This document shows, piece after piece, positions 10,806 to 36,516 of a DNA stretch of 64,000 nucleotides. Positions within the stretch are counted from its first letter, which is position 1; each line of letters opens with the position of its first letter. The notes under the pieces are model-generated. The model did not search any database and was not told the origin of the DNA. It saw only the letters and a list, made by a program, of their open reading frames with translations. Origin of the DNA: Cenarchaeum sp. (lineage in GTDB: Archaea > Thermoproteota > Nitrososphaeria > Nitrososphaerales > Nitrosopumilaceae). The position numbers were made by a program, and so were the translations under genes. The stretch spans positions 1,088,001 to 1,152,000 of the forward strand of contig CBDESU010000001.1 of assembly GCA_965242695.1 (NCBI GenBank), in the 5' to 3' direction.

Positions 10806-10825
10806 CCGCACCGCATAAATCCGCC
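10806..10825 (+). promoter_or_regulatory. Conserved TPR-gene promoter motif CCGCACCGCATAAATCCGCC (copy 1)
   Basis: Exact 20-mer; ATAAAT begins 28 nt before the GTG start. Confidence 0.75.
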
Positions 10826-10842
10826 CCGTACAGCCCGCCCCC

Positions 10843-11901
10843 GTGAGCGAAGACGGCAAGGAGGAGCACGAGCTCCCGCGCATACGCCTAAGCTACATCA
10901 CGGGCCCCGACGACGGCCCCGACGACGGCCCCGAAGAGGGGCGCGGCGGGGAAAGAGAGGGAGGCGGGCTGCCAGACCTCGCATCCTGCAAGGAGGCCGT
11001 CCGCCGCGACCCGGCCAGCATCAAGGCCCGCATGGAGCTCGCCACGGTCCTGCTCGCGTCCGGGCGCCTTGCCGCCGCGATCGCCGCCCTCGACGAGGCC
11101 GTGCGGATCGACCCGACCGGCGCCGAGGCGAACGCCATGCACGGCGCCGCGCTCCTGCGCGCCTCCAAGAGCGCCGAGGCCGAGCGCGCGTTCGGGGCCG
11201 CCGTCGCGGCCGACCCCGGCTACATCGCGGCCCACATCGGCCGGGCCGTCTCGCTCATGGGCCTCGGCAGGTACGCCGACGCGTCAGAGGCGTTCGCCGA
11301 GGCGGCGCGCAACGATCCCAAGAGCATCGATGCCAGGATCGGGCGCGGCGATACGCTGATCGCAACGGGCCGCCGCGACGAGGCCCTCGCGTCGTTCGAC
11401 GAGGCGCTGCGGATCGACCCCGGCAACGCGATGGTACACGCAAGGAGGGGCCGCGCGCTGCTCGAGACGGGCAGGCCCAGGAAGGCGCTCGCCGCGTTCA
11501 CGAGGGCCGCGCGGGCCGAGCCGAGGCTCGTCGATGCCCACATCGGGAGGGGCCATGCGCTGCTCGGGCTGGACAGGTACGAAAAGGGGCTTGCGGCATT
11601 CACGAGGGCGGCCCGCATTGACCCGCGCAGCCTGCCGGCCCACATGGGGCGCGCCGAGGCCCTCAGCGGCCTAGACCGCCCCGAGGGGTCGCTCGCCGCG
11701 CTAGACAGGGCCGCGGCCGTCGAACCGCAGTCGCCCACCGTCATCTCTGCGCGCGGAGGGGTGCTGTACGGCATGGGGCGGGTCGACGAGGGCATTGCGG
11801 CGCTCGAAGAGGCCGCCCGGCTCGCCCCCGACGACAAGTACCTTGCAAAGGTGATCGAAGAGCTGCGGCGGAGGAAGAAAGAGGGCGTGGCCGGGACTTG
11901 A
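10843..11901 (+). CDS. Tetratricopeptide repeat (TPR) protein
   Basis: 34-aa periodic repeats (AHIGRG.AL..LGR..EAL.AF..A.R.DP), 352 aa. Confidence 0.92.
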   Translation: MSEDGKEEHELPRIRLSYITGPDDGPDDGPEEGRGGEREGGGLPDLASCKEAVRRDPASIKARMELATVLLASGRLAAAIAALDEAVRIDPTGAEANAMHGAALLRASKSAEAERAFGAAVAADPGYIAAHIGRAVSLMGLGRYADASEAFAEAARNDPKSIDARIGRGDTLIATGRRDEALASFDEALRIDPGNAMVHARRGRALLETGRPRKALAAFTRAARAEPRLVDAHIGRGHALLGLDRYEKGLAAFTRAARIDPRSLPAHMGRAEALSGLDRPEGSLAALDRAAAVEPQSPTVISARGGVLYGMGRVDEGIAALEEAARLAPDDKYLAKVIEELRRRKKEGVAGT

Positions 11902-12056
11902 GCCGCGCGCGGATGGGCGGCCCATGCGGCCCGCTCGCGCAGAGTGTGATGCGGGCCTATGAAGTGTCCGAGGGGCCTAGCCGCGCGGAATTCGCACGGC
12001 CCGCGATCGCGCCAGGGCGGCGGATCGCGGCGCAGGTTGGAGCGGCCGGCGGGCCG

Positions 12057-12308
12057 TCAGCCGCAGGGGCTATCTCGCCTGACAAAGTCGAACGTGCGGT
12101 GCGCGTCCGCGGCGGCATCCCCCGGCCGCCCCTTTTCCACGCCGGCGCCGCCTTCCGCCCCGCCGCCCCGGTCCGGGAACAGGTGGTCGGTACGCTCCTT
12201 GGCCACCCTCATGGCCTCGACCTGCTCCGGCGTCGGCCCGCGCCGGAGGGCCGCCGTGACCGTTTCCCATTCCTCCTCCGTGAGCGACCGCACGTACCGC
12301 ATCCTCAT
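12057..12308 (-). CDS. Small protein, DUF1778/TacA-antitoxin-like C-terminal motif
   Basis: LTEEEWETVTAALRRGPTPEQVEAMRVAKER; paralogous to 27554..27733. Confidence 0.5.
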   Translation of the reverse strand: MRMRYVRSLTEEEWETVTAALRRGPTPEQVEAMRVAKERTDHLFPDRGGGAEGGAGVEKGRPGDAAADAHRTFDFVRRDSPCG

Positions 12309-12457
12309 GCGCCGGGGCGGCGCGCGGCGCCTATTATGCGTTGCCTGTGCATTCTGTGATATAGGGAGTAGGCATCCGAGGGGCGGCCGCGGAATCGCCC
12401 GGCCGATGCGCGCCGCAGAGGCGGCGGCACAAGGGCCGTAACGCGCCCCCCTCCGCT

Positions 12458-12477
12458 CCGCACCGCATAAATCCGCC
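12458..12477 (+). promoter_or_regulatory. TPR-gene promoter motif (copy 2)
   Basis: Exact 20-mer; ATAAAT 28 nt before ATG 12495. Confidence 0.75.
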
Positions 12478-12494
12478 CCTCCCGTCCCATCCCC

Positions 12495-13565
12495 ATGGCG
12501 GGCCCGGGCAGGGGAGGGGACGGCGGGAAAAAGGGCGGAGAAAGGGGCTCCAGGCCCCGGCGCCTGAGCCTGTGGTTCGGCATCGGCGGCGACCACGAGC
12601 GCCTGCTCAAGAGGGAGGGAAAGGGAATGGGGCCGCCGAACCTTGCCGCCAGCGAAGAGGCCGTCCGGCGCGACCCGGGCGACGTCGAGGCGCGCATAGA
12701 CCACGCCACGGCCCTGCTCGGCGCCGATCGCTGCGACGACGCGATCGCCGCCCTCGACGAGGCGCTGCGCATCGACCGCACGAGCGCCGGGGCGCACGCC
12801 CTGCGCGGCGGCATCCTCATGAACACGGGCAGGGCCGCCGAGGCCGTGCGCTCGTTCGAGGCCGCCGCCGAGGCCGATCCCCGCATGGCCGAGGCCCATA
12901 TCGGGCGCGGAGGATCCCTCATGAAGCTCGACAGGAACGAGGATGCCGAGGGTTCGTTCGCCGAGGCGGCCCGGGTCGAGCCGTCGAATCCGGACGCGCA
13001 CATCGGGCGCGGCGATGCGCTCAACGCGATGGGCCGCGGCGCCGAGGCCGTCTCGTCGTACGCCGAGGCGGCCCGGATCGAGCCGGGCAGGGTCGCGCCC
13101 CACGCAAAGATGGGCCATGTTCTGCTCGAGTTGGACAGGCACAAGGGGGCGCTTGCCGCGTTCGGAAGGGCCCTTAGGATCGAGCCGGGCCTGGTAGAGG
13201 CCCACGTCGGGAGGGGCCATGCGCTGCTCGGGACGGACAGGCCCAAGAGGGCGCTCGCCGCGTTCAGGAAGGCCGTGCGGCTCGATCCGGACAGCGGGGC
13301 GGCCCACTGCGGGCACGCCGAGGCGCTCTGGCGCCTCGGCCTCCCCGAAGAGGCGCTTGCCGCCGTCGACAGGGCCGTCCGCCTTGATCCTCGCGAGCCG
13401 GTCGCGCACTATGTGCGCGGCGGGATACTGTACGGCACGGGCCGCGCCGGCGAGGGAACCGCCGAGCTGGAAGAGGCGGCCCGGCTCGACCCCGACGACG
13501 GGCACATTGCAAGGACGCTCTACATGGTGCGGCGCAGGGACGGGAAGAGGGTGCAGGGGCAGTAG
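12495..13565 (+). CDS. TPR protein
   Basis: 34-aa TPR repeats, 356 aa, paralog of 10843. Confidence 0.92.
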   Translation: MAGPGRGGDGGKKGGERGSRPRRLSLWFGIGGDHERLLKREGKGMGPPNLAASEEAVRRDPGDVEARIDHATALLGADRCDDAIAALDEALRIDRTSAGAHALRGGILMNTGRAAEAVRSFEAAAEADPRMAEAHIGRGGSLMKLDRNEDAEGSFAEAARVEPSNPDAHIGRGDALNAMGRGAEAVSSYAEAARIEPGRVAPHAKMGHVLLELDRHKGALAAFGRALRIEPGLVEAHVGRGHALLGTDRPKRALAAFRKAVRLDPDSGAAHCGHAEALWRLGLPEEALAAVDRAVRLDPREPVAHYVRGGILYGTGRAGEGTAELEEAARLDPDDGHIARTLYMVRRRDGKRVQGQ

Positions 13566-13890
13566 CGCGGCGCGCGGCGGCCGCGGACCGGCGGCCCCGC
13601 TCCGGGCAGTTCCGCCCCGGCCGCCATGCCCGCGATCGATCGCGCAGCCGCTGCAACCGCCTCCATGCCCCCCAAGCCCGGCAGGAATAAGAGGGCATTC
13701 AGCCTCATGGGCCGCCCCGCCCGAAAAGGCCGAATATGCGGGGCGCAGCGGCTGCCCTTCCCCCTTCTCCCCGCCCTGTCCCTGCCGCCGCCTGTCCCGG
13801 CCGCCCGGCCCGCGGGCGGCGGCGCGCGCCGCGCCGCACCGCGCCGCGCCGCATCCCATGAAAGATGCTCCCCCTGCTCCTCCCAGCCGC

Positions 13891-13910
13891 CCGCACCGCA
13901 TAAATCCGCC
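13891..13910 (+). promoter_or_regulatory. TPR-gene promoter motif (copy 3)
   Basis: Exact 20-mer; ATAAAT 29 nt before ATG 13929. Confidence 0.75.
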
Positions 13911-13928
13911 CCCTCCCGCCACGCCCGC

Positions 13929-14993
13929 ATGGGAGGCGCGGCGGAAGGCGGAATAGGCGGAAGGCGGGCCCCGCGCGTGGCCATGACGATCGGCATCGGC
14001 GTCGAGTCCGAGCGCCCGGACACGGCGGCCGAAAAAGGGGACGGACGGCCCGACCTTGCCGCCTGCGAAGAGGCCGTCCGGCGCGACCCGGGCAGCATCG
14101 GCGCCCGCATGGACCACGCGGCGGCCCTGTCGAGCGCCGGGCGGCACGGCGATGCGCTCGCCGCCGCCGACGAGGCCCTGCGCATCGACCGTACGAGCGC
14201 CGGGGCGCACGCCCTGCGCGGCGCCATCCTCTTCAACTCCTCCAGGTACGCAGACGCCGTGCCCGCGTTCGAGGCCGCCGCCGCGGCCGACCCGGGCGAG
14301 GCCGCGCACCACATGGGGCGGGCAATGGCATGCACGGGCATCGGCCGCCGCGCCGATGCGATAGAGTCGTTCGGCGAGGCGGCCCGGCTCGACCCGTCTA
14401 GCGTGGATGCGCGCAACGGGCTCGGCATCGCGCTGTCCGAGGAGGGCCGCCATTCAGAGGCCCTTGCGGCGTACAGGGAGGCGCTGCGGATCGACCCGCG
14501 CAACCCCGTGTCCAACACAAAGAGGGGCGACATACTGGCCGGCAGGGGCAGGCACAAGGGGGCGCTTGCCGCGTATACGAGGGCAGTGCGGGCCGAGCCA
14601 GGGCTGGCCGAGGCCCACGTCGGAAGGGGGCGCGCGCTTGTCGGCCTGCGCAGGCCCAAGAGGGCGCTAGCGGCGCTTGCGAGGGCGGCGCGGCTGGATC
14701 CGGACAGCGCCGCCGTCCACGCCGTCCGCTCAGAGGCGCTCCTTATCCTCGGCCGGTACGAGGGGGCGCTTGCCGCCATCGACAGGGCCGCGCGCCTGGC
14801 CCCGGGCGACGGGAGCGTGCACTTTGCGCGCGGCGTCGTGCTGCTCGGCATGGGGCGGACCGCCGAGGGCGGCAGGGAGATCAAAGAGGCCGCGCGGCTC
14901 AGCCCCGACGACAGGAACATTGCAAAGGCGCTCGGCATGCTTCGGCCCGGGGGACAGGAGCGCATAGGCCGGCGCCGGGCCTCTCCCCCCTAG
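13929..14993 (+). CDS. TPR protein
   Basis: TPR repeats; start chosen at the in-frame ATG downstream of the motif. Confidence 0.9.
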   Translation: MGGAAEGGIGGRRAPRVAMTIGIGVESERPDTAAEKGDGRPDLAACEEAVRRDPGSIGARMDHAAALSSAGRHGDALAAADEALRIDRTSAGAHALRGAILFNSSRYADAVPAFEAAAAADPGEAAHHMGRAMACTGIGRRADAIESFGEAARLDPSSVDARNGLGIALSEEGRHSEALAAYREALRIDPRNPVSNTKRGDILAGRGRHKGALAAYTRAVRAEPGLAEAHVGRGRALVGLRRPKRALAALARAARLDPDSAAVHAVRSEALLILGRYEGALAAIDRAARLAPGDGSVHFARGVVLLGMGRTAEGGREIKEAARLSPDDRNIAKALGMLRPGGQERIGRRRASPP

Positions 14994-16245
14994 CGCGCAG
15001 CGGCGCCCCTTCGCGCCGCCGCCGCAAGCCGGGTGATCAGCTCCCTTTCCGCGGCCCGAAAGCCGCAGTCCGCGTCGCGCCAAAAGCCGCGCCAGGCCTC
15101 GTTGAGAAGGCCGGCGACCGTGTCGCCGCCCGATCCGCCACGTTCCCGCCCCCCGCCGGAGTAGCCGCGCAGTCCCGCCCGCCCGAACGTCGGGAGTATG
15201 GAGGCGGCAACCTCTTGGAGCAGCTCGGACGGGAAGGCGTGGCCGTACCCGGGCGGCGGGCTGCCGCACAGCTGCGCCATCGCGCCCCATTCCGCCCTGA
15301 TGCGATCCGCCTCTGGCTCGTGCCCGAGCAGTCGCATCCCGGCGTCGAGCAGGCGCATCCTGGCCTCGCCGGAGGGGTGGTCCTGCTCGGACAGCGGCCT
15401 GAGCTCGTAGATGTCCAGGTCAGTCTTGGTAACGAGGTGCAGGTTCGAGTGCGCGTATGCAGGCCCCGCCGCAAACAGGGCAAAGAGATCGCAGAACGCC
15501 TCCTGTATCCAGATAGACTTCCACCGTGACCACATCCACTCCACACCGTCCCGCGTCAGCGCCGGATCCGGCCCGCACTCCGTCTTGCCCACAAGCTGCG
15601 AGTACCGATCATCGACGACGCCAAGCGCGCCGTCCGTGCCATCCATGATGGGCTCGCACCCGGCTCCACGATTTACGTGGACGAACAGCAGGTGCCCCAT
15701 CTCGTGATAAAAGTCAGGCATGTGCAATAGGAACGCCGCCTCCGAGAACGGGACATGCACGGTATTGGTCGCCGGATGCGCAAAGTAGTACTCACCCGAC
15801 GTACACGATACCGCCGGACAGGGAAACGGCAGGCCCACCTCGCCGTGCATCGCGGACAGGACATCGTTGAGGAACACTGCCCGCTCCGTCTGGCAGTGCA
15901 GCGGCGGCATGCAGTACCCGTCGACCGCTGTTATTACCCTGGTGCAACCTTTCAGGATCCGCAACGCCTTGGCGCCAGCGCCACCCGTACAGCCGTTGAC
16001 AAGCAGGTCGTCAGCCCGTTCCAACATGCTCGACTGCCGCTCCAGTGTCACTATAGTCGCGGCGGCCAGGCGTTCCAGTGCCGCATGCCGCCGCCGCCGC
16101 CGGCCGGCGCCCTGTACATGGACCCGGTCGCGGCGGCCAGGCGTTCCAGCGCCGCATGCCGCTGTCTGTCCGGAATTGCGGCCCTCAGGTACTCGGCCCT
16201 GTCGATCTGCTCGCGGATGGCGCACCTCAAGTAGCGGGTGCTCAT
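14990..16245 (-). pseudogene. HEXXH zinc metallopeptidase-like gene, frameshifted by a 71-nt insertion near its 5' end
   Basis: FYHEMGHLL...QEAFCDLFA...DHPSGEAR (HExxH / ExxxD / HP). Duplicated segment at 16056 and 16127. Removing 71 nt gives 1185 nt, the same length as paralog 34147..35331. Confidence 0.7.
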
Positions 16246-16649: not shown

Positions 16650-16863
16650 CGTCCGCAGCCCCCCAACTCTAATGCCCCCACGCTGCGCCGGCCCGCCATT
16701 GCACGCAGGCGCACGGGGGCCATTTTTAAAGCTGTCGATATCGCACTACACGCGGCGGCCAGGCGTTCCAGCGCCGCATGCCGCTGTCTGTCCGGAATTG
16801 CGGCCATCAGGGACTCGGCCCTGTCGATCTGCTCGCGGATGATGCGCCTCAAGTAGCTGGCGC

Positions 16864-18914: not shown

Positions 18915-18934
18915 CCGCACCGCATAAATCCGCC
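18915..18934 (+). promoter_or_regulatory. TPR-gene promoter motif (copy 4)
   Basis: Exact 20-mer; ATAAAT 29 nt before ATG 18953. Confidence 0.75.
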
Positions 18935-18952: not shown

Positions 18953-19906
18953 ATGGGCGGCCCCGACGAAGGCGGCGGCGAAAGGGACGGCGGCAGCGGC
19001 AGGCCCCCGCGCGTTCGCATGTGGTTCGGCACCGCCGCCGACCACGAGCGCCTGCATAGGATTCACGGGGAGGGCAAGGAGAAGGCAGGCACCGACATCG
19101 CCGCCCGCGAAGAGGCCGTCCGCCTGGACCCCGGCAGCGCCAACGCCCGAATGTACCTGGCCCTGGCGCTGCTCGGCAGGGGGCGCCACGACGACGCGCT
19201 CGCCGCCCTCGACGAGGCGCTGCGGATCGACGCGACCAGCCCCGATGCGCACAGCATGCGCGGCGCCATCCTCGTGAACACGTCCAGGGCCGCCGAGGCC
19301 GCGCGCGCGTTCGAGGCAGCCGCCGCGGCCGATCCCGGCAGCGCCGGGGCCCACATCGGGCGCGGCACGTCGTACATGGGCCTCGGCAGGCACGAGGATG
19401 CCGCGGCGGCGTTCGCAGAGGCGGCGCGGGCCGACCCGTCGAGTCCGGATGCGCGCATCGGGCGCGGCGATGCGCTGGTCTGGATGGGCCGCCGCGCCGA
19501 GGCCCTCGCAGAGTACGTCGAGGCGCTGCGGATCGACCCGCGCAGGGTCGCTCCCCACGCAAAGATCGGGCGCCTGCTGCTAGAGGCGGGCAGGAACAGG
19601 AGGGCGCTTGCGGCGTTTGGCAGGGCGGCGCGGCTGGAACCCGACAGCGGGCCGGCCCACTGCGGGCGCGCCGAGGCCCTCGAGCGCCTCGGCCGCCACA
19701 GGAGGGCGCTTGCGGCGGCCGACAGGTCGGCGCGGCTGGATCCGCACGAGCCGGCCGTGCACTTTGTGCGCGGCGTAGTGCTGTTCGGCATGGGGCGGGC
19801 CGATGAGTCGATCGCCGCGCTCGAAGAGGCTGCCCGGCTCGACCCCGACGACGGGAACGCGGCCGGGGTGCTCGAAGAGGTGCGGCGGAAGACGGGGCGC
19901 GCGTAG
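18953..19906 (+). CDS. TPR protein
   Basis: TPR repeats; closest to 12495 (MWFG...DHERL). Confidence 0.9.
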   Translation: MGGPDEGGGERDGGSGRPPRVRMWFGTAADHERLHRIHGEGKEKAGTDIAAREEAVRLDPGSANARMYLALALLGRGRHDDALAALDEALRIDATSPDAHSMRGAILVNTSRAAEAARAFEAAAAADPGSAGAHIGRGTSYMGLGRHEDAAAAFAEAARADPSSPDARIGRGDALVWMGRRAEALAEYVEALRIDPRRVAPHAKIGRLLLEAGRNRRALAAFGRAARLEPDSGPAHCGRAEALERLGRHRRALAAADRSARLDPHEPAVHFVRGVVLFGMGRADESIAALEEAARLDPDDGNAAGVLEEVRRKTGRA

Positions 19907-20075: not shown

Positions 20076-22280
20076 ATGGGCGGCGGCGGCGGGCGCGCGG
20101 GGCAGGACAAGGAGGGCAGCCCCGCCGGAACAGACGGGGCGGCAGGAGCCGAATGCGGCGGCCATGCGGCGCGCGGCGCAGACCTGCAGTCGCAGGGCCT
20201 CCACGAAGAGGCCCTTGCGGCGTACGACGAGGCGGTGCGGCTGGATCCCGGCAGCGCGGCCGGGCATGCAGGGCGGGGCGATGCGCTGCTAGAGATGGGC
20301 CGCAGCGAAGAGTACCGCGATCCGGACGAAGAGACGGAGGGGCCTGGTCCCCGCGGAGCGCGGCCCGGAAGGGATCGCTTCAAGGACGCCCTTGCGGCGT
20401 ACGACGAGGCGGTGCGGCTGGATCCCGGCAGCGCCGACCGGCGCGCGGGGCGCGGCGAGGCGCTCCTAGAGCTTGGCAGCAACAAGAAGGCGATCGAGGC
20501 CTTTGGCGAGGCCGCGCGGCTGGATCCCGGCAGTGCAGACCGGCGCAGGGTGCTCGCAGAGGTGCTGTGCGACCTGGACCGGTTCGAGGACGCCCTTGCG
20601 GCGTACGACGAGGCGGTGCGGCTGGATCCCGGCAACGTCCACCTGATCGAGGGTCGCGGCGAGGCGCTGCTGGCCCTTGGCAGGAACGAAGAGGGCGTGG
20701 CCGCGTACAGGGAGGCGGTGCGGACAGAGCCCGGCAGTGCAGACCGGCACGAGGCGCTCGGCATGATCTTCAGGCGCATCGACCGCCCCGAAGAGGCGCT
20801 GGCCGCGTACGGGGAGGCCGCGCGGCTGGATCCCGGCAGCGCATCCAGGCAGAGGGAACTCGGCGAGGCGCTGCTAGACCTTGGGCGCACAGAGGACGGC
20901 CTGGCCGCGTACAGGGATGCGGTGCGGCTAGAGCCCGGCAGTACATCCAGGCAAAGGGAACTAGGCGAGGCGCTGCACCTGGCAGATCGCAACGCCGAGG
21001 CGCTCGCCGCGCTCAACGAGGCCGTGCGGATGTGCAGTAGCAGCGGCAGCGGCAGCGGCAGCGGCAGCGGCAGCGCCCGGTCGGCCCATATCCTGCGCGG
21101 CTGCGTCCTGATGGCCATGTCGCGGCACGACAGGGCCGTGCCGGACTTCAAGTCGGCCGTGGGGCTCGACCCCGGCGATGCCAGCGCGCACGTGTGGCTG
21201 GGGGTCGCGTACGAGCAGCTTGGCAGGTACAAGAGTGCGATCGCATCGATGAAAAGGGGCATCCGGCTCGATCCGCAGAACGCGGACGCGCATACCGTCC
21301 ACGGCAGGGCGCTGCTCAAGGCCGGCCGCACCGGCAAGTCCCTTGCCGCGTTCGACAGGGCGGTCAGGCGCGACGGCGGCCTGGCAGAGGCCCACGAGGG
21401 GAGGGGCTATGCACTGCTCAAGGCCGGCAGGCACAAGGAGGCGCTCGCCGCGCTTGCAAGGGCGGCGCGGCTCGATCCCGACAGCGCAAGCGCACACCTG
21501 GGAAGGGGCCGCGCGCTGCTCAAGGCCGGCCGCCGCAGGGCGGCGCTCGCCGCGCTCAAGAAGGCCGCGCGGATCGACCCCGACGATGCATATGTGCACC
21601 TGGCCGCCGGCATCGTGCTGAGCGGGGCCGGCCTACACAAGAGGGCGCTTGCCGCCCTCGACAGGGCCGCATCGCTGGACGACGGCGATGCTGCCGTCCA
21701 CCGCATGCGCGGCATTGCGCTGGGCGAGCTCGGCCGCCACAAGAGGGCGCTTGCCGCCCTCGACGGGGCCGCATCGCTGGACGACGGCGATGCTGCCGTC
21801 CACCGCATGCGCGGCATTGCGCTGGGCGAGCTCGGCCGCCACAAGAGGGCGCTTGCCGCGCTAGACAGGGCCGCATCGCTCGACGACGGCGACTGGAAGA
21901 CGCACCTTGCAAGGGGCAGGGCCCTTGAGGACATGGGGAGGTACCCCGAGGCGCTCGCCGCCCTCGACAGGGCCGTGGAGATCCAGCCCGGGAATTCGGC
22001 CGTGCACTGCCGGCGCGGCATGATCCTTGTCAGCCTCCACAGGGAGTCCGAGGCACTCTCCGAGTTCGACGAGGCCGACCGCATCATGCCCGGCAACGGG
22101 CTGGTTGCCTGCGGGCGCGCCATGGCCCTGGCCGGCCTCGGCCGCCTCGAAGAGGCGCGCGCCGTGGCCGACAAGGCCTCGCGGATCGACCCCGACGACG
22201 AGGACGTTGCACAGGTCCGCAGGATGCTGCAGGAGGCGCCCGGGGGCGGCAGGAGGCGGCGCAGGGCGCGGGGCGCGTGA
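20076..22280 (+). CDS. Long TPR protein (~734 aa)
   Basis: Many TPR units, near-exact 102-nt internal duplications around 21635-21880, and an SG-repeat linker around 21040-21075. Confidence 0.9.
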   Translation: MGGGGGRAGQDKEGSPAGTDGAAGAECGGHAARGADLQSQGLHEEALAAYDEAVRLDPGSAAGHAGRGDALLEMGRSEEYRDPDEETEGPGPRGARPGRDRFKDALAAYDEAVRLDPGSADRRAGRGEALLELGSNKKAIEAFGEAARLDPGSADRRRVLAEVLCDLDRFEDALAAYDEAVRLDPGNVHLIEGRGEALLALGRNEEGVAAYREAVRTEPGSADRHEALGMIFRRIDRPEEALAAYGEAARLDPGSASRQRELGEALLDLGRTEDGLAAYRDAVRLEPGSTSRQRELGEALHLADRNAEALAALNEAVRMCSSSGSGSGSGSGSARSAHILRGCVLMAMSRHDRAVPDFKSAVGLDPGDASAHVWLGVAYEQLGRYKSAIASMKRGIRLDPQNADAHTVHGRALLKAGRTGKSLAAFDRAVRRDGGLAEAHEGRGYALLKAGRHKEALAALARAARLDPDSASAHLGRGRALLKAGRRRAALAALKKAARIDPDDAYVHLAAGIVLSGAGLHKRALAALDRAASLDDGDAAVHRMRGIALGELGRHKRALAALDGAASLDDGDAAVHRMRGIALGELGRHKRALAALDRAASLDDGDWKTHLARGRALEDMGRYPEALAALDRAVEIQPGNSAVHCRRGMILVSLHRESEALSEFDEADRIMPGNGLVACGRAMALAGLGRLEEARAVADKASRIDPDDEDVAQVRRMLQEAPGGGRRRRRARGA

Positions 22281-24415: not shown

Positions 24416-24435
24416 CCGCACCGCATAAATCCGCC
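24416..24435 (+). promoter_or_regulatory. TPR-gene promoter motif (copy 6)
   Basis: Exact 20-mer; ATAAAT 28 nt before GTG 24453. Confidence 0.75.
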
Positions 24436-24452: not shown

Positions 24453-25517
24453 GTGGACGGCGGCGCGGCCGGGGGCGCAGGGGAGGAAAGAGGCGGCAGG
24501 AGACCCCGCGTAATCGTCGCGTTCGGCACCGATCCCGATCGCAGGAACCTGGTGGAAATGACGTGGATCGACACCAAGGTCGATGGCATTGCCGCCTGCG
24601 AAGAGGCCGTCCGGCGCGACCCGGGCGGCGCGGGCGCGCGCATGGACCTCGCCGCGGCCCTGATCGGCGCCGGGCGGCGCGGCGATGCGCTCGCGGCGCT
24701 CGACGAGGCCGTTCGGATCGGCGGCGACGGCAGCGCTGACGCACATGCCATGCGCGGCGTCGTCCTCTTGATCGACCGCAAGAGGGCCGAGGCCGCGCGC
24801 GCATTCGAGGCCGCCGCCGCGGCCGACCCGGGCAGCGTCGCGGCCCGCATGGGATGCGGACTGGCCTGCCTGAAGCTGGGCCGGCGCGCCGATGCGATAG
24901 GGTCGTTCGGCGAGGCGGCGCGGCTCGATCCCGGCAGCGCGGATGCGCGGATCGGACTTGGCGGCGCGCTGGCCGAGGAGGGCCGCTACGCCGACGCCCT
25001 CGCGGCGCTCGACGGGGCCCTGCGGATCGACCCGGACAGCGTCCCTGCCCACGCAAAGAGGGGATACGCGCTGCTCGGCATGGACAGGCCCAAGAGGGCG
25101 CTTGCGGCGTTTACAAGGGCCGCCAGGCTCGAGCCCGGCCTGGCCATCGTCCACATTGGGAGGGGGCGCGCGCTGCTCGACGCGGACAGGCCCAAGAGGG
25201 CGCTTGCGGCGTACGCGAGGGCCGCGCGGCTGGACCCCGGCATCGCCGGTGCCCACCAGGGGCGCGCCGAGGCCCTGCACCGCCTCGGCCGCCACAAGAG
25301 GGCGCTTGCCGCCATCGACAGGGCCGCGGCCATTGATCCGCGCGAGGCCGGCGTTCACCTTGGGCGCGGCATCATACTGTGCAGCCTGGGGCGGATCGGC
25401 GAGGCCGTGTCCGAGTGCGAAGAGGCCGCCCGGCTCGACCCCGGCGACGAGAACGTTGCGGGGGAGCTCGCAGAGATGAGGCGGCTGGCGGCGAGCGCGC
25501 AGGCCGGCGGCGAGTAG
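24453..25517 (+). CDS. TPR protein
   Basis: TPR repeats, 354 aa. Confidence 0.92.
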   Translation: MDGGAAGGAGEERGGRRPRVIVAFGTDPDRRNLVEMTWIDTKVDGIAACEEAVRRDPGGAGARMDLAAALIGAGRRGDALAALDEAVRIGGDGSADAHAMRGVVLLIDRKRAEAARAFEAAAAADPGSVAARMGCGLACLKLGRRADAIGSFGEAARLDPGSADARIGLGGALAEEGRYADALAALDGALRIDPDSVPAHAKRGYALLGMDRPKRALAAFTRAARLEPGLAIVHIGRGRALLDADRPKRALAAYARAARLDPGIAGAHQGRAEALHRLGRHKRALAAIDRAAAIDPREAGVHLGRGIILCSLGRIGEAVSECEEAARLDPGDENVAGELAEMRRLAASAQAGGE

Positions 25518-25752: not shown

Positions 25753-26781
25753 ATGGCGAGGGGCGTGAAGCGGAAAAGGGGAAAGAGGCCCCGCATAGTC
25801 GCCGGATTCAGCATCGACGCCGAGGGCAGGCGCCTGATGGAGGTGACGCTGATCGACACCATGGTGCCCAGCCTCGCCGCCTGCAAAAAGGCCGTCCGGC
25901 GCGACCCTGGCAGTGCGGACGCCCGCATGGACCTGGCCTCGGCCCTGATCGGCGCCGGGCGGCGCGGCGATGCGCTCGCCGCCGCCGACGGGGCCGTGCG
26001 GGTCGGCCCGGGAAACGCCGAGGCGCACGCCCTGCGCGGCGCCATCCTCGCAGCCTCCGACAAGGCAGGGGCCGCGCGCGCGTTCGAGGCCGCCATCGAG
26101 GCCGACCCCGACCACATCGGGGCCCACATGGGGCGGGCGATGGCATGCCTAAAGCTCGGGCGGCGCGCCGATGCGACAGGGTCGTCCGGCGAGGCGGTGC
26201 GGATCGACCCGGCGAGCGCGGATGCGCGGATCGGACTTGGCGGCGCGCTGGCCGAGGAGGGCCGCCACGCCGAGGCCCTCGCCGAGTACGACGAGGCCCT
26301 GCGGATCGACCCGGACAGCGCCGCGGCCCACGCAAGGAGGGGATACGCGCTGCTCAGCCTGGGCAGGACCAAGAGGGCGCTTGCGGCGTTTGCGAGGGCC
26401 GCCAGGCTCGAGCCCGGGCTGGCCGTCGTCCATGTTGGGAGGGGGCGCGCGCTGCTCGACGCGGACAGGCCCAAGAGGGCGCTTGCGGCGTGCACGAGGG
26501 CCGCGCGGCTGGTGCCGGACAGCGCCGATGCCCACCGCGGGCGCGCCGAGGCGCTCCACCGCCTGGGCAGGCACGAGAGGGCGCTTGCCGCCATCGACAG
26601 GGCCGTGGCCGCGGGGCCGCGCGTGGCTCTCGCCCGCCTTGTGCGCAGCACCATACTGTACAGCCTGGGCAGGAACGGCGAGGCCGTGTCCGAGTGCGAA
26701 GAGGCCGCCAGGATCGAGCCCGGCGACGAGAACGTTGCAAAAGCGCTCGCCGAGGCGAGGCGGCTGGCGGGGCGCTCGTAG
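25753..26781 (+). CDS. TPR protein
   Basis: TPR repeats, 342 aa, close paralog of 24453. Confidence 0.92.
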   Translation: MARGVKRKRGKRPRIVAGFSIDAEGRRLMEVTLIDTMVPSLAACKKAVRRDPGSADARMDLASALIGAGRRGDALAAADGAVRVGPGNAEAHALRGAILAASDKAGAARAFEAAIEADPDHIGAHMGRAMACLKLGRRADATGSSGEAVRIDPASADARIGLGGALAEEGRHAEALAEYDEALRIDPDSAAAHARRGYALLSLGRTKRALAAFARAARLEPGLAVVHVGRGRALLDADRPKRALAACTRAARLVPDSADAHRGRAEALHRLGRHERALAAIDRAVAAGPRVALARLVRSTILYSLGRNGEAVSECEEAARIEPGDENVAKALAEARRLAGRS

Positions 26782-29053: not shown

Positions 29054-30037
29054 GTGCCGTCTTCGACCGCACTCGTGGCGCGGAAGAGGATATACGTGCG
29101 CGGCTCGGCCCGGTTGCCGCGGGTCAGCCTGTACGACATGTTTGTAAAGTTCTACCGGGCGCGCGTCAAGGCGGGCGACGGCGATCCGGACCACGCCGAC
29201 ATGGCGGTCGTCAGGTTCTCTACTACGCTCGAGCAGTCCGGCCGGCGCCTTTGGAAGGTTTACCTGGAGGGCCATCCAGACGACGAGACCGTCGAGGTGG
29301 TCGTGCAGCGCCACAATTTTGACCATGTGCGGCGCATGGCATGGGCCGAGCTGGTTGCAAGCAGCAAGAACATCTCTAGCACGGACGATCTGCGCTCGAT
29401 CCTTGACAAGTTGGGGATGGGCGCCGTCCTTGGCAAGAAAAGGGCGGCGGCGGCGGGCTCCACCATGAGCAGCCGGCACGGGGTCGTCCATGGCGCCGCA
29501 GACGCGGGCATCGACGTGGTCGATGCGTTCGGAGAGATCGAGCCGCTGATTCGCGACATGCTCTCGAACGACCTGGAGGCGCTGATCCAGATGGACCTTG
29601 CAAAGGCCCACGTGGCGGAGACGGTGCCTGGCAGCACGTGGTCGCCGCGCGAGTGCCACGAGGCGATCGTGGAGCGGTGCAGCAAAGCCAGGGGCGGCGA
29701 TCAAGCGCTGGTCCAGCGATCCATGGGCAGGTCGCTGGCTGCGCTGGAACGGGATGCAGAGGCCTTGGAGGCGTACACCCGCGCTGCCGAGATCAATCCG
29801 GAATACGCCGCCGCGCATGCCGGCCGCGGCGATGCGCTCTACGCGCTGGATCGGGATGCAGAGGCCTTGGAGGCGTACACCCGCGCTGCCGAGATCAATC
29901 CGGAATACGCCGCCGCGCATGCCGGCCGCGGCGATGCGCTCTACGCGCTGGATCGGGATGCAGAGGCCTTGGAGGCGTACACCCGCGCTGCCGAGATCAA
30001 TCCGGAATACGCCGCCGCGCATGCCGGCCGCGGCTAG
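29054..30037 (+). CDS. Hypothetical protein with C-terminal TPRs (probably truncated)
   Basis: Globular-looking N-terminus followed by near-identical 34-aa TPR units; start uncertain. Confidence 0.6.
   Translation: MPSSTALVARKRIYVRGSARLPRVSLYDMFVKFYRARVKAGDGDPDHADMAVVRFSTTLEQSGRRLWKVYLEGHPDDETVEVVVQRHNFDHVRRMAWAELVASSKNISSTDDLRSILDKLGMGAVLGKKRAAAAGSTMSSRHGVVHGAADAGIDVVDAFGEIEPLIRDMLSNDLEALIQMDLAKAHVAETVPGSTWSPRECHEAIVERCSKARGGDQALVQRSMGRSLAALERDAEALEAYTRAAEINPEYAAAHAGRGDALYALDRDAEALEAYTRAAEINPEYAAAHAGRGDALYALDRDAEALEAYTRAAEINPEYAAAHAGRG
29741..30033 (+). repeat. 102-bp tandem repeat, about 3 copies (one TPR each)
   Basis: Near-identical units at 29741, 29843 and 29945; a further copy lies near 30822. 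Confidence 0.9.
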
Positions 30038-33009: not shown

Positions 33010-33029
33010 CCGCACCGCATAAATCCGCC
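33010..33029 (+). promoter_or_regulatory. TPR-gene promoter motif (copy 8)
   Basis: Exact 20-mer; ATAAAT 30 nt before ATG 33049. Confidence 0.75.
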
Positions 33030-33048: not shown

Positions 33049-34020
33049 ATGGCCGGCACAGGGGGAGGCGGAGCGCATGCCCGTCCCGCGCCGCCTGCCG
33101 GCCCGGGGCGCGATGCGGCTGCCGGAGAAAAGGCGGGCAGCTCCGATGCCCGAATGGACAGGGCCGCGGCCCTGGCCGCCGCCGGGCGCATCGAGGATGC
33201 GCTCGCGCACCTGGACGACGCCGTGCGGATCGACGGGTCGAATTCCAGGGCGCATGCCATGCGCGGCTCCCTGCTCGCGAGCCTCTCTAGGCACGCCGAG
33301 GCCGAGCTCGCATTCAGGGCGGCCATCGCGGCCGACCCAGGCGATTCCTCCAGCCACACGGGGCTTGGACTGGCGCTCATAAGGCTCGGCCGGAACAGGG
33401 AAGCCTTCGAGCCGCTCGCCGAGGCGGTGCGCCTTGATCCGTCCAGATCGCGCGTGCAGGCGGCGCCCGGCGGAGGCCTGGCGGGGGCCGGCCGCCCCGC
33501 CGAGGCCGCCGAGGCGCGCGGCAGGGCGGCTCGGATGCGCCCCGACACGGCAGTTATCCGCGCCAAGAGGGGCTGGGCGCTGCTCGATGCCGGCAGGGGC
33601 AAAAAGGCGCTCGCCGCATTCACGAGGGCCGTCGAGCTCGACCCGCGGCTCGCAGATGCCCATGTGGGGAGGGGCACCGCGCTGTTCACGATGAACGCGC
33701 ACAAGAGGGCGCTCGCCGCATTCACGAGGGCCGCGCGGCTCGATCCCCGCAGGGCGGCGGCCCACTACGGGCGGGCGCGGTCCCTCCAGAACATCGGCCT
33801 CGCCAAGAGGGCCCTTGCCGCCATCGACAGGGCCGCGGCCGAGGGGATGGGCGGGGCAGACATGCACATTGTGCGCGGCGACATCCTCTGCGGCCTGGAC
33901 AGGTACGGCGAGGCCGCCGCCGAGTTCGAGGAGGCGGCCAGGATCAGGCCCGGCGACAGGGACGCCGCAATGGCCCTCGGAGCGGTCCGGCGCAAGATGG
34001 CCGGGCGGAAGAGGCCGTAG
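33049..34020 (+). CDS. TPR protein
   Basis: TPR repeats. Confidence 0.9.
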   Translation: MAGTGGGGAHARPAPPAGPGRDAAAGEKAGSSDARMDRAAALAAAGRIEDALAHLDDAVRIDGSNSRAHAMRGSLLASLSRHAEAELAFRAAIAADPGDSSSHTGLGLALIRLGRNREAFEPLAEAVRLDPSRSRVQAAPGGGLAGAGRPAEAAEARGRAARMRPDTAVIRAKRGWALLDAGRGKKALAAFTRAVELDPRLADAHVGRGTALFTMNAHKRALAAFTRAARLDPRRAAAHYGRARSLQNIGLAKRALAAIDRAAAEGMGGADMHIVRGDILCGLDRYGEAAAEFEEAARIRPGDRDAAMALGAVRRKMAGRKRP

Positions 34021-34146
34021 GGCCGCGCGGCGGGGGCGCGGGGCCGAGCGGGCATGCGAACCGCTCGCCGGCGCGCAGGGAAGAGGCCGCAGGGCCGCGC
34101 GGCGGGAGTGCGGGGCCGCGCAGTGCCGATCGGCCCCGAGATCCCC

Positions 34147-35331
34147 CTAGCGCACAACGACCCCCCTGCGCGCCGCCGCCGCAAGCCTAGAGATCAGCTC
34201 CTTTTCCGCATCCCGAAAGCCGCAGTCGGCGTCGCGCCAAAAGCCGCGCCAGGCCTCGTTGGGCAGGCCGGCTACCGTGTCGCGGCCCGATCCGCCCCGT
34301 TCCCGCCCCCCGCCCGAATAGCCGCGCAGTCCGGCCCGCCCGAACGTCGGAAGCACGGCGGCGGCAGCCTCTTGGAGCGGTTCGGACGGGAAGGCGTGGC
34401 CGTACCCGGGCGGCGGACCACCATACGGCTGCGCCATCGCGCCCCATTCCGCCCTGATGCGATCCGCCTCGAGATCGTGCCCGAGAAGGCGCATCCCGGC
34501 GCCGAGCAGGCGCATCCCGGCCTCGCCGGAGGGGCGGTCCTGCCTGGCCAGCAAATTGAGCTTGTATACGCCAGTGCCTGTTTTGGAGACGAGGTGCGGG
34601 TTCGAGTGCGCGTACGCGGGCCCCGCAGCAAACAGGGCAAAGAGATCGCAGGATGCCTCCTGCATCCACTCGGACTTCCACCGGGACCGCATCCACCCTG
34701 CTTCGTCCTTCGCCGGCAGGGGATCAGACTCGCGCCCCCTGCTGCCCGACAGTTCCGAGTACCATCCGCCGATGGCCCCAAGCGCACCACCCATACCGTC
34801 CAGGATGGGCCTGCATTCGGCCCCCCGATCCACATGGCGGGACGACAAACGGCCCGGCTCGTGGCAAAAGTCGGGCATGTGCGGCAGGAATGCCGCCTCC
34901 GAGAGCGGGACGTGCACGGTGCTGGCGGCCAGATGCACAAAATAGTAGCCGCCCGACGTGCACGGCGCCGCGGGGCATGGAAACGGCAGGCCCACTTCTC
35001 CGTGCATTGCGGACAGTGCATCGCTGAGAAGCACGGCCTGCTCCGACTGGCAGTGCGGTGGAGGCAAGCCGTATCCTTCGGCCGCGGCGATGGCCCGGGT
35101 ACGCATCTTCAGGATCCGCATCGCCTTGGCGGCAGCGCCGTCCATGCCGCCGCCGCCAGGCAGTGCGCCGGCCCGCTCCAGCAGGCGCGCCTGCGTTTCT
35201 AGCATGTCCCTGCATGCGGCGGCCAGCCGTTCCGGCGCCGCATGCCGCTGCCTGGCGGGGATTTCGGCCATCAGGGACTCTGCCCTGTCGATCTGCTCTC
35301 GGATGATGCACCTCAAGTAGAGGGCGCCCAT
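34147..35331 (-). CDS. HEXXH-peptidase paralog with degenerate zinc motif (HEPGR)
   Basis: Open 394-aa paralog of 14990..16245; HEMGH is replaced by HEPGR. Confidence 0.65.
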   Translation of the reverse strand: MGALYLRCIIREQIDRAESLMAEIPARQRHAAPERLAAACRDMLETQARLLERAGALPGGGGMDGAAAKAMRILKMRTRAIAAAEGYGLPPPHCQSEQAVLLSDALSAMHGEVGLPFPCPAAPCTSGGYYFVHLAASTVHVPLSEAAFLPHMPDFCHEPGRLSSRHVDRGAECRPILDGMGGALGAIGGWYSELSGSRGRESDPLPAKDEAGWMRSRWKSEWMQEASCDLFALFAAGPAYAHSNPHLVSKTGTGVYKLNLLARQDRPSGEAGMRLLGAGMRLLGHDLEADRIRAEWGAMAQPYGGPPPGYGHAFPSEPLQEAAAAVLPTFGRAGLRGYSGGGRERGGSGRDTVAGLPNEAWRGFWRDADCGFRDAEKELISRLAAAARRGVVVR

Positions 35332-35449
35332 AATCTGTACATCTTCCCGAACAGGGATGCGCATACGCTGCCAGGGGCATCCGAGATGCCGCCGAGTATC
35401 GACAATCCCTCGCACGAGGCCGTCCTGCCGCCCGTCCCCGCCCTCACCC

Positions 35450-35469
35450 CCGCACCGCATAAATCCGCC
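35450..35469 (+). promoter_or_regulatory. TPR-gene promoter motif (copy 9)
   Basis: Exact 20-mer; ATAAAT 29 nt before ATG 35488. Confidence 0.75.
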
Positions 35470-35487
35470 CCCTCCGCCCCCTCCCGC

Positions 35488-36516
35488 ATGGCAAGCGGGA
35501 TGGGCAAGGGCGGAGGAGGCCGCAGGCCCTGGAGCATCCGCATGGAGTTTGGCGCCGAGCCCGGCGCGGGGCGCATGGTGGCAGGGGGCGCAGAGGGCGA
35601 GAAGATCAGCATTGGCGCCTGCCACGAGGCCGTCCGCCACGACCCCGGCAGCGTCGATGCCCGCATGGACAGGGCATGGGCCCTGGCAGGGGCCGGGCGC
35701 ACCGGAGAGGCGCTCGCCGACCTGGAGGAGGCCGCGCGGATCGACGGCTCGCGCTGCGAGGCGCACGGCATGCGCGGCATCATACTCATGGACGCCTCGC
35801 GGCACGCCGAGGCCCTGCGCGCGTTCGGGGATGCGGTCGCCGCGGACCCCGGCTACGTGGCCGGCCACATGGGAGTCGGAATGGCATGCATGGGCCTCGG
35901 CCGGAACACGGACGCCATCGAGTCGTTCGGCGAGGCGGCGCGGCTCGACCCGTCGAGCGCGGACGCGCAGATCGGGCTCGGCGATGCGCTAGGCGAGGAG
36001 GGGCGCGCCGCCGAGGCCCTCGAGTCGTACGAAAGGGCGGCGCGGCTGTCCCCCGGCAGCGCCACTGCCCGCATGAGGGTTGGCGGCGCGCTCATCGAGG
36101 AGGGGAGGTTCAGGGAGGCGCTTGCCGCGTACGCGAGGGCCGCGAGGCTAGAGCCGGGACTTGCCGAGGCGCATGTCGGAAGGGGCAGCGCGCTGCTCGA
36201 GGCGGACAGGCACAGGAGGGCGCTGGCCGCGTTTTCAAGGGCCGCGCGGCTGGATCCGGGCAGCGCAGACGCCCACTGCGGGCGCGCCGAGGCGCTCTAC
36301 CACCTGGGCCTCGTCAAAAAGGCCATGGCGGCCGCCGACAAGGCCGTGGCCACGGATCCCGGCAGCGCAGACGCCCACATTGTGCGCGGCGAGATACTCG
36401 AGGGCACGGGGCGGCGCAGGGAGGCGGTGGCCGAGCTCGAAGAGGCCGTGCGGATCGATCCGGACAGCGAGTACGCCGCGGCGGCGCTCGAAATTGCGCG
36501 GCGCGGGGCCCGATGA
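35488..36516 (+). CDS. TPR protein
   Basis: TPR repeats. Confidence 0.9.
   Translation: MASGMGKGGGGRRPWSIRMEFGAEPGAGRMVAGGAEGEKISIGACHEAVRHDPGSVDARMDRAWALAGAGRTGEALADLEEAARIDGSRCEAHGMRGIILMDASRHAEALRAFGDAVAADPGYVAGHMGVGMACMGLGRNTDAIESFGEAARLDPSSADAQIGLGDALGEEGRAAEALESYERAARLSPGSATARMRVGGALIEEGRFREALAAYARAARLEPGLAEAHVGRGSALLEADRHRRALAAFSRAARLDPGSADAHCGRAEALYHLGLVKKAMAAADKAVATDPGSADAHIVRGEILEGTGRRREAVAELEEAVRIDPDSEYAAAALEIARRGAR

Follow-up and report, generated by a model that had tools for sequence, protein, structure and literature searches.

Nine TPR genes in a 64,000-nt stretch of archaeal DNA (the window) each stand behind the same 20 bp. What is this motif for, and why has it stayed the same while the genes behind it have changed? 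We propose that it is probably a core promoter, shared by the members of a TPR family that has expanded in tandem in an ammonia-oxidising archaeon associated with sponges.

The motif, CCGCACCGCATAAATCCGCC, occurs in nine exact copies in the window, on the + strand only and 17-19 nt 5' of TPR gene starts. The chance level with up to three mismatches is 0.03 matches, and 10 copies were reached in none of 100 shuffles. The first base of ATAAAT lies 28-30 nt 5' of an ATG or GTG in all nine copies, as the preliminary description had stated. Its account of nine identical motifs on the + strand before TPR genes was likewise borne out by exact search, ORFs and Pfam: the ORFs behind these copies comprise 317-734 aa, and all nine products are TPR proteins (TPR_2 E-values 1e-28 to 7e-87; scores of 95.9-278.9 bits against a cut-off of 27, with several TPR units above the cut-off). 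A 102-nt DNA periodicity was also found; a TPR unit comprises 34 residues. The features are as follows, with TPR genes assigned by Pfam.

10806..10825, +, exact 20-bp motif, ATAAAT 28 nt 5' of GTG 10843
10843..11901, +, TPR gene, 352 aa
12458..12477, +, exact motif, 28 nt 5' of ATG 12495
12495..13565, +, TPR gene, 356 aa
13891..13910, +, exact motif, 29 nt 5' of ATG 13929
13929..14993, +, TPR gene, 354 aa
18915..18934, +, exact motif, 29 nt 5' of ATG 18953
18953..19906, +, TPR gene, 317 aa
20038..20057, +, exact motif, 29 nt 5' of the family-conserved ATG 20076; second in-frame ATG at 20058
20076..22280, +, long TPR gene, 734 aa
23976..23995, +, degenerate copy CCGCACCGCGCAAATCCGCC, 2 mismatches, both in the TATA (to GCAAAT)
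24416..24435, +, exact motif, 28 nt 5' of GTG 24453
24453..25517, +, TPR gene, 354 aa
25715..25734, +, exact motif, 29 nt 5' of ATG 25753
25753..26781, +, TPR gene, 342 aa
29054..30037, +, TPR gene without motif (internal contrast)
33010..33029, +, exact motif, 30 nt 5' of ATG 33049
33049..34020, +, TPR gene, 323 aa
35450..35469, +, exact motif, 29 nt 5' of ATG 35488
35488..36516, +, TPR gene, 342 aa

The copies are spaced 440 to 7295 bp apart, with other genes between them. Behind the degenerate copy at 23976 we found only a 46-aa ORF, in DNA with a faint TPR likeness (E 0.014); the sole copy in the window without an intact gene is therefore also the sole copy with a mutated TATA. The motif-free TPR gene at 29054..30037 indicates that the motif does not mark all TPR genes.

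Position of the motif relative to the archaeon's promoters

The genome is archaeal by its SSU rRNA match (1450 bits) and is that of an AmoA-bearing archaeon of the Thaumarchaeota type (68% GC, two contigs); the window DNA is present in sponge metagenome runs from four studies. In archaea, the centre of the TATA element lies some 26-27 nt 5' of the transcription start, and the BRE, which adjoins the TATA on its upstream side and is usually purine- or A-rich, is read by TFB. Upstream of 3047 predicted starts, which come from a codon-usage-based gene caller and of which some are possibly misplaced, there is an AT peak at -29..-24 (AT 0.47-0.54 against a background of about 0.29) together with an A-rich spot at -34/-33, and 1216 of the 3047 genes carry a hexamer with at least five A/T out of six at -30..-27. 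The amoA gene has AAAttcTTATATA at the same place, about 30 nt 5' of its ATG.

Measured from start codons and not from transcription start sites, ATAAAT spans -28..-23 to -30..-25 in the nine exact copies and coincides with the genome-wide AT peak, and the single upstream A of the motif (-33) coincides with the A-rich spot. These positions support the initial suggestion of an archaeal TATA box on a leaderless mRNA: judged from the sequence, ATAAAT appears to occupy exactly the position of the archaeon's TATA box for such mRNAs. The start-proximal 17-19 nt are 66% C and contain no purine run, and hence no Shine-Dalgarno-like site. The lack of such a site, the AT-rich hexamer at -28..-30, the A at -33 and, as in the genome-wide profile, the C at -1 before ATG are all in line with an archaeal leaderless BRE/TATA promoter such as that of amoA. 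However, the TPR motif departs from it in its upstream half, which is GC-rich (CGCACnG) where the canonical element is A-rich, in being invariant over 16-20 bp rather than following a loose consensus, and in being confined to expanded paralog families. The conserved block CGCAC(n)G of 5-7 bp that adjoins the TATA is not purine-rich, and only its A at -33 fits the genome profile.

As a core promoter, the motif would be bound by TBP on CATAAATC, while a TFB would read the GC-rich upstream CGCAC as its BRE, with motif position 7 (-31) as a tolerated spacer base. RNA polymerase would start at or next to the A or G of the start codon, 28-30 nt past the point where ATAAAT begins, and the mRNA would be leaderless. 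Were transcription to start further upstream instead, the 20-mer would lie in a 5' leader and could serve as a protein- or ribosome-binding site or as a processing site. This seems very improbable to us, given that the 20-mer sits at the genome-wide TATA position, that the DNA upstream of it is unconserved with no second AT-rich box in the alignment, and that the window gave no match to any Rfam family.

Distribution of the motif and of its 10-nt core

A scan of the whole genome returned 10 exact copies and four more with up to two mismatches. All 14 lie on the + strand and within C1:1,098,806-1,220,803, and a reversed-pattern control gave none. At up to three mismatches there were 19 forward sites and no reverse ones (control 1); among the sites listed at this level, each precedes an ORF with a family-like start (MGG/VGG-type N-terminus), except the decayed copy at 23976. 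The pattern CA[CT]N[GC]CATAAAT, standing 27-31 nt 5' of ORFs of 250 aa or more, was found 22 times in this genome (G000) and nine times in the region examined of its sister species in the same genus (G004). Across these 31 promoters, variation is restricted to position 7 and the last 3-4 bases.

Among 40 relatives searched, G004 alone contains the motif, as GCACGGCATAAATCC with G at position 7, and it was not found in the 39 others. Eleven sites occur in G004 at up to one mismatch, and 10 sites there are followed 28-29 nt on by ORFs of 200 aa or more. The motif-bearing TPR genes number 22 in G000 and 9-11 in G004, and the set is present in two of the five genomes of the genus (G001-G003 are the other genomes). 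In both species the extended motif stands before TPR-family genes only, which supports the conclusion that it is not a generic promoter.

The expectation that the motif marks only TPR genes thus holds for its extended form. It fails for the 10-nt core ACNGCATAAA, which is common to two other expanded families. The core occurs 60 times in G000, against four for the reversed control, and 43 of the 60 are found 26-32 nt 5' of ORFs that span 100 aa or more. Behind these 43 are 21 TPR genes, 16 genes of an Ala/Trp-rich 270-aa family (family B), two of a third pair (family D) and four singletons, three of which are family-B-like by eye; no gene of any other kind was found among the 43 placements in G000. 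The core is also enriched in G004 (37 versus 13), and not in G001-G003. The flanks differ by family, with CCGCAC..ATAAATCC before TPR genes and GAACGGCATAAAGGCGG before family B.

We read the core as what may be the mark of a special class of promoters, which would unite expanded families in one regulon with a possible role in host interaction. All members of the TPR family would then be switched by the same factor or factors. It is conceivable, if doubtful, that this extends to a 'symbiosis regulon' of about 45 lineage-specific genes from three unrelated expanded families, switched together by a specialised reader, for which two long-branch TFB orthologs or another regulator are candidates. 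If true, the promoter would be fixed while its proteins could diversify freely (dN/dS about 0.9), perhaps in response to pressure from the sponge host.

The motif cluster sits in a variable island bordering CRISPR-Cas genes and a restriction-modification module; G000 and G004 differ in the gene content of this island. Identity across the two species is 79% for the flanking Cas4-Cas1 and 83% for the flanking Cas2, compared with 37-52% for the TPR best hits, and the syntenic spacer between cas1 and the TPR genes aligns at the motif only. Many same-orientation copies in such an island would also suit a site at which a site-specific recombinase rearranges TPR cassettes by shuffling, insertion or deletion; the motif had been suggested to define the ends of such cassettes. 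We consider the chance of this to be minimal. Recombination sites have a recombinase nearby, bound the mobile unit and usually contain inverted-repeat cores, whereas the 20-mer has no dyad and no second site at gene 3' ends, its copies are irregularly spaced (440 to 7295 bp), and the 17-19 nt to the start codon are fixed at all intact copies. Apart from one small HTH_Tnp_1 ORF, no Pfam integrase or recombinase was found in the 48 ORFs of the window. Nor does any of the 15 contig joints listed from four metagenome runs coincide with a motif copy; the short sides of these joints (21-52 nt) lie inside TPR repeats.

Promoter conservation and protein divergence

The ten genes behind exact copies share a mean amino-acid identity of 0.49 (range 0.37-0.70), and their four-fold-site identity is 0.65 versus 0.41 expected at random. 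Over the 45 gene pairs, dS is 0.24-0.81 and dN/dS 0.65-1.14 (about 0.9). Of the 822 coding columns free of gaps, only 191 are invariant, and invariant stretches reach at most 6 nt, compared with 20 in the motif. Outside the 20 motif columns, the commonest base is found in only 4-9 of the 10 genome-wide exact copies, which is the compositional background. These values confirm the divergence of flanks and proteins noted at the outset. Taken together, an identical motif, diverged coding sequence and randomised flanks indicate strong purifying selection on the BRE+TATA block cCGCACnGCATAAATCC. The switch, a nearly unchanging 16-20 bp, is far better conserved than the TPR proteins behind it, and within the gene unit of this family it is the promoter that is under the tightest constraint.

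Could the identity have arisen without selection, through very recent duplications or through gene conversion that homogenises promoters? In a quick tree, the subfamily of ~350 aa forms a G000-only clade (SH-aLRT 100), so that its expansion postdates the divergence of G000 and G004. The long gene at 20076 (734 aa), which carries the exact 20-mer, falls in a clade apart from the other exact-copy genes; conversion could explain this, as could promoter exchange or simply a poor tree for repeat proteins. However, at the observed dS, ~5-16 differences per pair would be expected over 20 neutral sites, and none is observed in any of the 45 pairs. Moreover, the bases abutting the motif are at background identity and no invariant coding run exceeds 6 nt, a 20-bp conversion tract with the same sharp ends at ten loci is implausible, and a second species retains the core at a TPR protein identity of just 37-52%. 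An origin without selection is thus already largely refuted, and we give it very little weight.

Under the core-promoter reading, each gene duplication would have carried the promoter along, after which cCGCACnGCATAAATCC would have been kept by purifying selection while the coding sequence evolved near-neutrally and other intergenic DNA was randomised.

A contig from another study (X4) has SNPs at 10756 and 10830 and, among the SNPs listed, none within 10806-10825, a weak hint in itself.

Candidate readers and the sponge context

The core class may be read by one of four TFB paralogs or by an extra regulator. There are four TFB genes each in G000 and G004, and five, five and six in the motif-free G001, G002 and G003; two full TBPs are present in every one of these genomes. 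Each of the four TFB orthogroups has members from all five, and two TFB orthologs lie on long branches common to G000 and G004. No TFB or TBP special to these two motif-bearing genomes was found among the five.

This last observation would also suit a dedicated repressor or activator, for which an ordinary TATA with invariant GC-rich flanks (CCGCAC.GC, CCGCC) would form the operator. Such a protein would overlap the TATA box and switch the whole TPR family, perhaps with family B, together. The ten exact copies are invariant to 5 bp 3' and 9 bp 5' of the TATA; conservation reaches 2-5 bp past a textbook BRE+TATA, which a separate DNA-binding protein would explain equally well, and the differing TPR and family B flanks are as expected of family-specific operators. 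Dimeric archaeal regulators, however, usually bind palindromic or repeated half-sites. The 20-mer, as read from its sequence, has no dyad symmetry or inverted repeat, and a CCGC direct repeat does not hold up, since both G004 and the long-protein subfamily have CGGC in place of the second CCGC. The lack of a palindrome leaves room for a monomeric or asymmetric binder. Furthermore, the block conserved in the two species is 16 bp long and coincides with BRE+TATA, the 3' CGCC being variable, and none of the ORFs inside the cluster gave a DNA-binding domain hit. We therefore regard an operator as rather unlikely.

For a core promoter read by general factors, haloarchaea offer a parallel, as PMC4230888 (citing Facciotti 2007 and Turkarslan 2011) describes promoter classes specified there by TFB/TBP paralogs; according to PMC9239080, Nitrosopumilaceae generally carry many TBP/TFB domains. 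The archaeon, with four TFBs and two TBPs, resembles that system, and a distinct BRE/TATA flavour confined to one set of genes would be in keeping with general factors that divide their targets in this way. It differs in that no paralog is specific to the motif-bearing genomes; we infer the link.

In this genome, 103 predicted proteins match a TPR query at E <=1e-5, which documents the expansion. The eukaryotic-like proteins (ELPs) of sponge symbionts are repeat families expanded in host-associated genomes compared with their kin, and act on the host. To our knowledge, almost nothing is known about the regulation of expanded 'eukaryotic-like' repeat proteins in uncultivated sponge-symbiotic archaea. 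Eukaryotic-like TPR proteins are described as enriched in sponge symbionts, including sponge Thaumarchaeota (PMC6697440, PMC7848895, PMC6790972). The present case is alike in its TPR-only proteins, its AmoA-bearing high-GC archaeon and its presence in sponge metagenomes of four studies; it differs in that no signal peptide or hydrophobic segment was found in the motif-linked TPR proteins, which may nevertheless contact the host. The main texts of those three articles never use the word 'promoter', and a common invariant promoter combined with near-neutral protein evolution is not described in them.

Here, a short, exactly defined promoter marks only expanded families and is kept in two species while the proteins drift near-neutrally. 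The motif can serve as a sequence tag for finding a co-regulated gene set in metagenomes, and the 20-mer as a defined probe with which the four TFBs could be used in pull-down or footprinting experiments. It also provides a natural test case for what sets promoter classes apart in archaea other than haloarchaea, be it paralogs of the general factors or additional regulators. Borrelia offers a parallel in its paralogous lipoprotein genes, which have diverged but retain a near-identical promoter region, the 'upstream homology box'. That box belongs to a bacterial sigma-70 context with longer blocks of homology, whereas the TPR block is short, of the archaeal BRE/TATA kind, and set in randomised DNA.

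A shared 20-mer and the genes it precedes

Scanning the window for the 20-mer CCGCACCGCATAAATCCGCC, which has an ATAAAT core, we recovered all nine exact + strand copies that the preliminary description had placed before TPR genes, plus a copy with two changes, both within the AT-rich hexamer:

10806, 12458, 13891, 18915, 20038, 24416, 25715, 33010, 35450 (+): exact copies
23976: copy with two changes

With up to three mismatches, 0.03 copies are expected in the window by chance; the shared motif is real, and statistically it is extreme. An ATG or GTG lies 17-19 nt 3' of every exact copy, with ATAAAT starting 28-30 nt before it, and opens ORFs of 317-734 aa, the products of which are TPR proteins in nine of nine cases (Pfam). 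These are TPR-only, stay under every NCBIfam equivalog cut-off and showed no hydrophobic segment or signal-like N-terminus (maximum 19-residue Kyte-Doolittle mean ≤0.84 in the first 60 aa). Of the window copies, only that at 23976 has a damaged TATA, and it alone lacks an intact gene, the DNA behind it having only a faint TPR likeness (E 0.014).

In an alignment anchored on the motif, its 20 columns are invariant and the flanks are unalignable. The stretch from motif to start is 66% C, with no purine run. On the coding strand, C strongly predominates in the flanks of the TPR promoters (-67 to -38 and -18 to -1 relative to each start), with C/G skews of 0.49 and 0.54, compared with 0.07 ± 0.23 and 0.06 ± 0.26 at 1180 other TATA-bearing promoters. 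The first 60 coding nt are not exceptionally G-rich (skew 0.26 vs 0.09 ± 0.16). The sequence ATGCGCGCCGC, conserved in part, stands 49-61 nt upstream in just 3 of 19 promoters and was not retained.

Throughout the genome studied (G000, contigs C1 and C2), allowing up to two mismatches gave 14 sites, all forward and all inside 122 kb; up to three gave 19 forward and no reverse sites. The pattern CA[CT]N[GC]CATAAAT stands 27-31 nt upstream of ORFs of 250 aa or more at 22 places, 21 of them at C1:1.0988-1.2400 Mb and one on C2, and GCATAAAT sites elsewhere are without the motif's flanks. A TPR query matched 103 predicted proteins, many lacking the motif, including the one at 29054-30037 in the window. 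From these site counts and motif-less TPR genes it follows that the motif is a mark of a single clustered TPR family rather than of TPR genes at large, and that it does not extend to unrelated genes. Only TPR-family genes are preceded by the extended motif, which is not a generic promoter. Pairing the BRE-like GCAC.[GC]C with different AT-rich boxes gave 243 sites and brought out no additional gene set. Against genome contigs, CGCACNGCATAAATCC gave at least 115 single matches in unrelated bacteria, a chance level for 15 specified bases; against metagenome contigs, CCGCACSGCATAAATCCSSC gave 47 loci in unrelated coding contexts, at none of which a start codon opening an ORF of 100 aa or more follows the motif at 14-23 nt.

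Promoter position and conservation of the motif

Genes were called with a simple codon-usage caller (3049 genes, 80% coding). Before their start codons the AT fraction rises from ~0.29 to 0.47-0.54 at -29 to -24, with a second peak (0.44 and 0.42) at -34/-33. A hexamer with at least five of six A/T at -30 to -27 precedes 1216 of 3047 genes, the profile of which reads a-A-A...T-T-T/A-A-A-A with C at -1; amoA has AAAttcTTATATA at the TATA position. This is the pattern of a putative BRE plus TATA box in front of mRNAs that would mostly lack leaders. Both peaks coincide exactly with features of the motif, its ATAAAT and its single A (-33/-34), consistent with the TATA-box spacing of a leaderless mRNA proposed in the preliminary description. 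Elsewhere in the genome, nine head-to-tail 34-bp units (C1:881379-881651, +), each with a TATA-like GTTATATG, stand directly before a ~500-aa ORF and look like a tandemly repeated promoter-like element.

Among 40 relatives, the element was found only in G004, a same-genus genome of 3.7 Mb; matches with three mismatches in G002 (same genus) and G009 were rejected as promoters of this kind. The G004 version, GCACGGCATAAATCC, has 11 sites at up to one mismatch; at ten of them an ORF of 391-1111 aa with the N-terminus MG(G/A/E) begins 28-29 nt further on, and these ten fall in a ~116-kb region. The TPR cluster is syntenic in the two genomes and flanked in both by Cas4-Cas1 and Cas2 (79% and 83% aa identity). 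Best matches between their TPR proteins reach only 37-52%, and the cas1-TPR spacer is alignable only at the motif. Across the two species, the 31 promoters have in common the block cCGCAC.GCATAAATCC, in which position 7 (-31) accepts C, G or T and the final bases are loose. Judged by its placement, this block is the TATA octamer together with the 5-7 bp immediately 5' of it, where a BRE would lie. In a quick tree, the ~350-aa TPR subfamily forms a clade confined to the genome studied (SH-aLRT 100), and the long gene at 20076 falls outside it despite its exact motif. The CRISPR-cas block of the window directly abuts the first TPR promoter:

372-8406: CRISPR array, 36-nt repeat, ~111 units
8603-8905 (-): cas2
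8922-10703 (-): cas4-cas1 fusion

We then compared the promoter with the proteins over the ten exact-copy genes (45 pairs, NG86). Amino-acid identity averages 0.49 (range 0.37-0.70), in keeping with the strong divergence of flanks and proteins described earlier. Nucleotide identity averages 0.65, and four-fold-site identity is 0.65 vs 0.41 expected from composition. With dS of 0.24-0.81 and dN/dS of 0.65-1.14, the TPR proteins evolve almost neutrally. At such dS values two neutral 20-mers would, by our arithmetic, be expected to differ at ~5-16 positions; the motif shows no difference in 45 of 45 pairs. As an internal control, 191 of 822 ungapped coding columns are invariant, the longest invariant run being 6 nt, and the bases abutting the motif on both sides are at compositional background. 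Recent duplication or gene conversion does not account for so sharp a 20-bp island of identity, and the motif is best read as held by purifying selection.

The other proposal, a recombination site defining cassette ends, found no support: among the joints listed from contigs of four metagenome runs none falls at a motif, although these contigs are short and make a weak test of cassette turnover. The listed joints have sides of 21-52 nt within TPR repeats. The best reading of the motif is a family-specific BRE/TATA core promoter of putatively leaderless TPR genes.

A proposed wider promoter class and its possible readers

An unbiased count of AT-containing 16-mers in the genome returned the TPR motif and AACGGCATAAAGGCGG, at 10 copies each, together with CRISPR repeats and a tandem repeat. 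About 20 genes of an Ala/Trp-rich ~270-aa family (family B), which has no Pfam or NCBIfam match, have the second motif, (GATC)GAACGGCATAAAGGCGG, 28-31 nt before their starts; this motif was not found in G001-G004 (same genus) at up to one mismatch. Both motifs share the 10-mer ACNGCATAAA, also present before a pair of paralogs that form a third family (family D). Examples are:

C1:1044833 (-), 1045991 (-), 1046922 (-): family B genes
C1:782855-844420: family B genes
C1:1685805-1696269: family B genes
C1:1801609, 1804473 (+): family D, ~390-aa paralogs, N-terminus MAGQAAKLVA..., CAACGGCATAAAT 28 nt before the start

The 10-mer occurs 60 times in the genome (reversed control, 4), and 43 of the 60 sites have an ORF of 100 aa or more starting 26-32 nt downstream. 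It is also enriched in G004 (37 vs 13), with no enrichment in G001 (29/24), G002 (11/11) or G003 (25/55).

Sites of ACNGCATAAA by gene family
TPR: 21
Family B: 16
Singletons (3 family-B-like by eye): 4
Family D: 2
Any other gene: 0

The motif is best read as belonging to a small promoter class that would be used only by expanded families. As the core is common to two unrelated families, it argues for a common reader of these promoters rather than descent from the promoter of one ancestral gene.

The genome encodes four TFBs, located at C1:1644327, C2:650579 (-), C2:649205 and C1:1751557, and two TBPs plus a fragment; motif-less genomes match or exceed this, with 5, 5 and 6 TFBs and at least two TBPs each. 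In the TFB tree all five genomes are represented in each of four orthogroups. By counts and tree, G000 and G004 have no paralog that the other genomes lack, and a dedicated extra TFB or TBP was rejected. The TFB orthologs G0c/G4c and G0d/G4d have long shared branches (0.63 and 1.08), a weak lead to candidate readers. In haloarchaea, differential regulation is reported to be determined by TFB/TBP paralogs (PMC4230888), and Nitrosopumilaceae are reported to have many TBP/TFB domains (PMC9239080). The motif's flanks might be read by a TFB, as a TFB-specific BRE, or by a separate operator protein; we favour the former, since the block conserved between the species matches BRE plus TATA in position and has no dyad. 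No DNA-binding domain was matched among the cluster ORFs, and the interspersed ORFs had no match in Pfam, NCBIfam or PADLOC, so that the cluster offers no regulator candidate.

Source organism and surroundings of the cluster

The genome comprises two contigs (3.89 Mb, 68% GC), and the window spans C1:1,088,001-1,152,000. The genome's SSU rRNA (1450 bits) and AmoA (393.7 bits) are archaeal. The DNA runs carrying the stretch come from four studies and are labelled as sponge metagenomes or coded organisms, from which we conclude that the source is an ammonia-oxidising archaeon associated with sponges. None of the runs listed for 10700-20200 of the window is recorded as RNA. Sponge ammonia-oxidising symbionts reach a GC content of 65-67% (PMC7848895 and PMC6790972). 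These papers and PMC6697440, on sponge Thaumarchaeota, count TPR proteins among 'eukaryotic-like proteins', and the word 'promoter' is absent from their main texts. A literature search did not find any promoter common to a family of archaeal paralogs.

Several further features were observed. The minus-strand ORFs among the TPR genes form two small families without family matches, one of three tandem ~621-nt repeats (75-87% identical, ~135-aa products) and the other of three copies (86-93%, ~130-aa ORFs). The ~430-aa paralogs further downstream start on a conserved ...GGGCC..TTCGGCCC..TAaC/GC ATGGACGACAGG junction. The methylase locus adjoins a truncated duplicate of the TPR promoter at C1:1207884; its two ORFs are 84% and 65% identical to the G004 copies.

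16130-17944 and 28196-31409 (-): ORFs of the two small families
30783-31049 (+): TPR gene fragment without promoter
37438-37722 (-): small HTH_Tnp_1 ORF
38209-53814 (+): series of repeated gene pairs/operons, including the ~430-aa paralogs with weak HEAT_2 matches
59009-59302 (+): weak ParE-like toxin match
59966-60058 (+): tRNA-Thr(CGU), 93 nt, long enough for an intron
59356-64000 (-), on past the window to C1:1171493: giant 8045-aa ORF
C1:1198552-1203162: 1536-aa ORF, sharing a repeat with a G004 region
C1:1208224-1209371 (-): N6/N4 DNA methylase and adjacent 169-aa ORF, within the TPR cluster
C1:1217110-1217769: partial copy of the methylase/169-aa ORF locus
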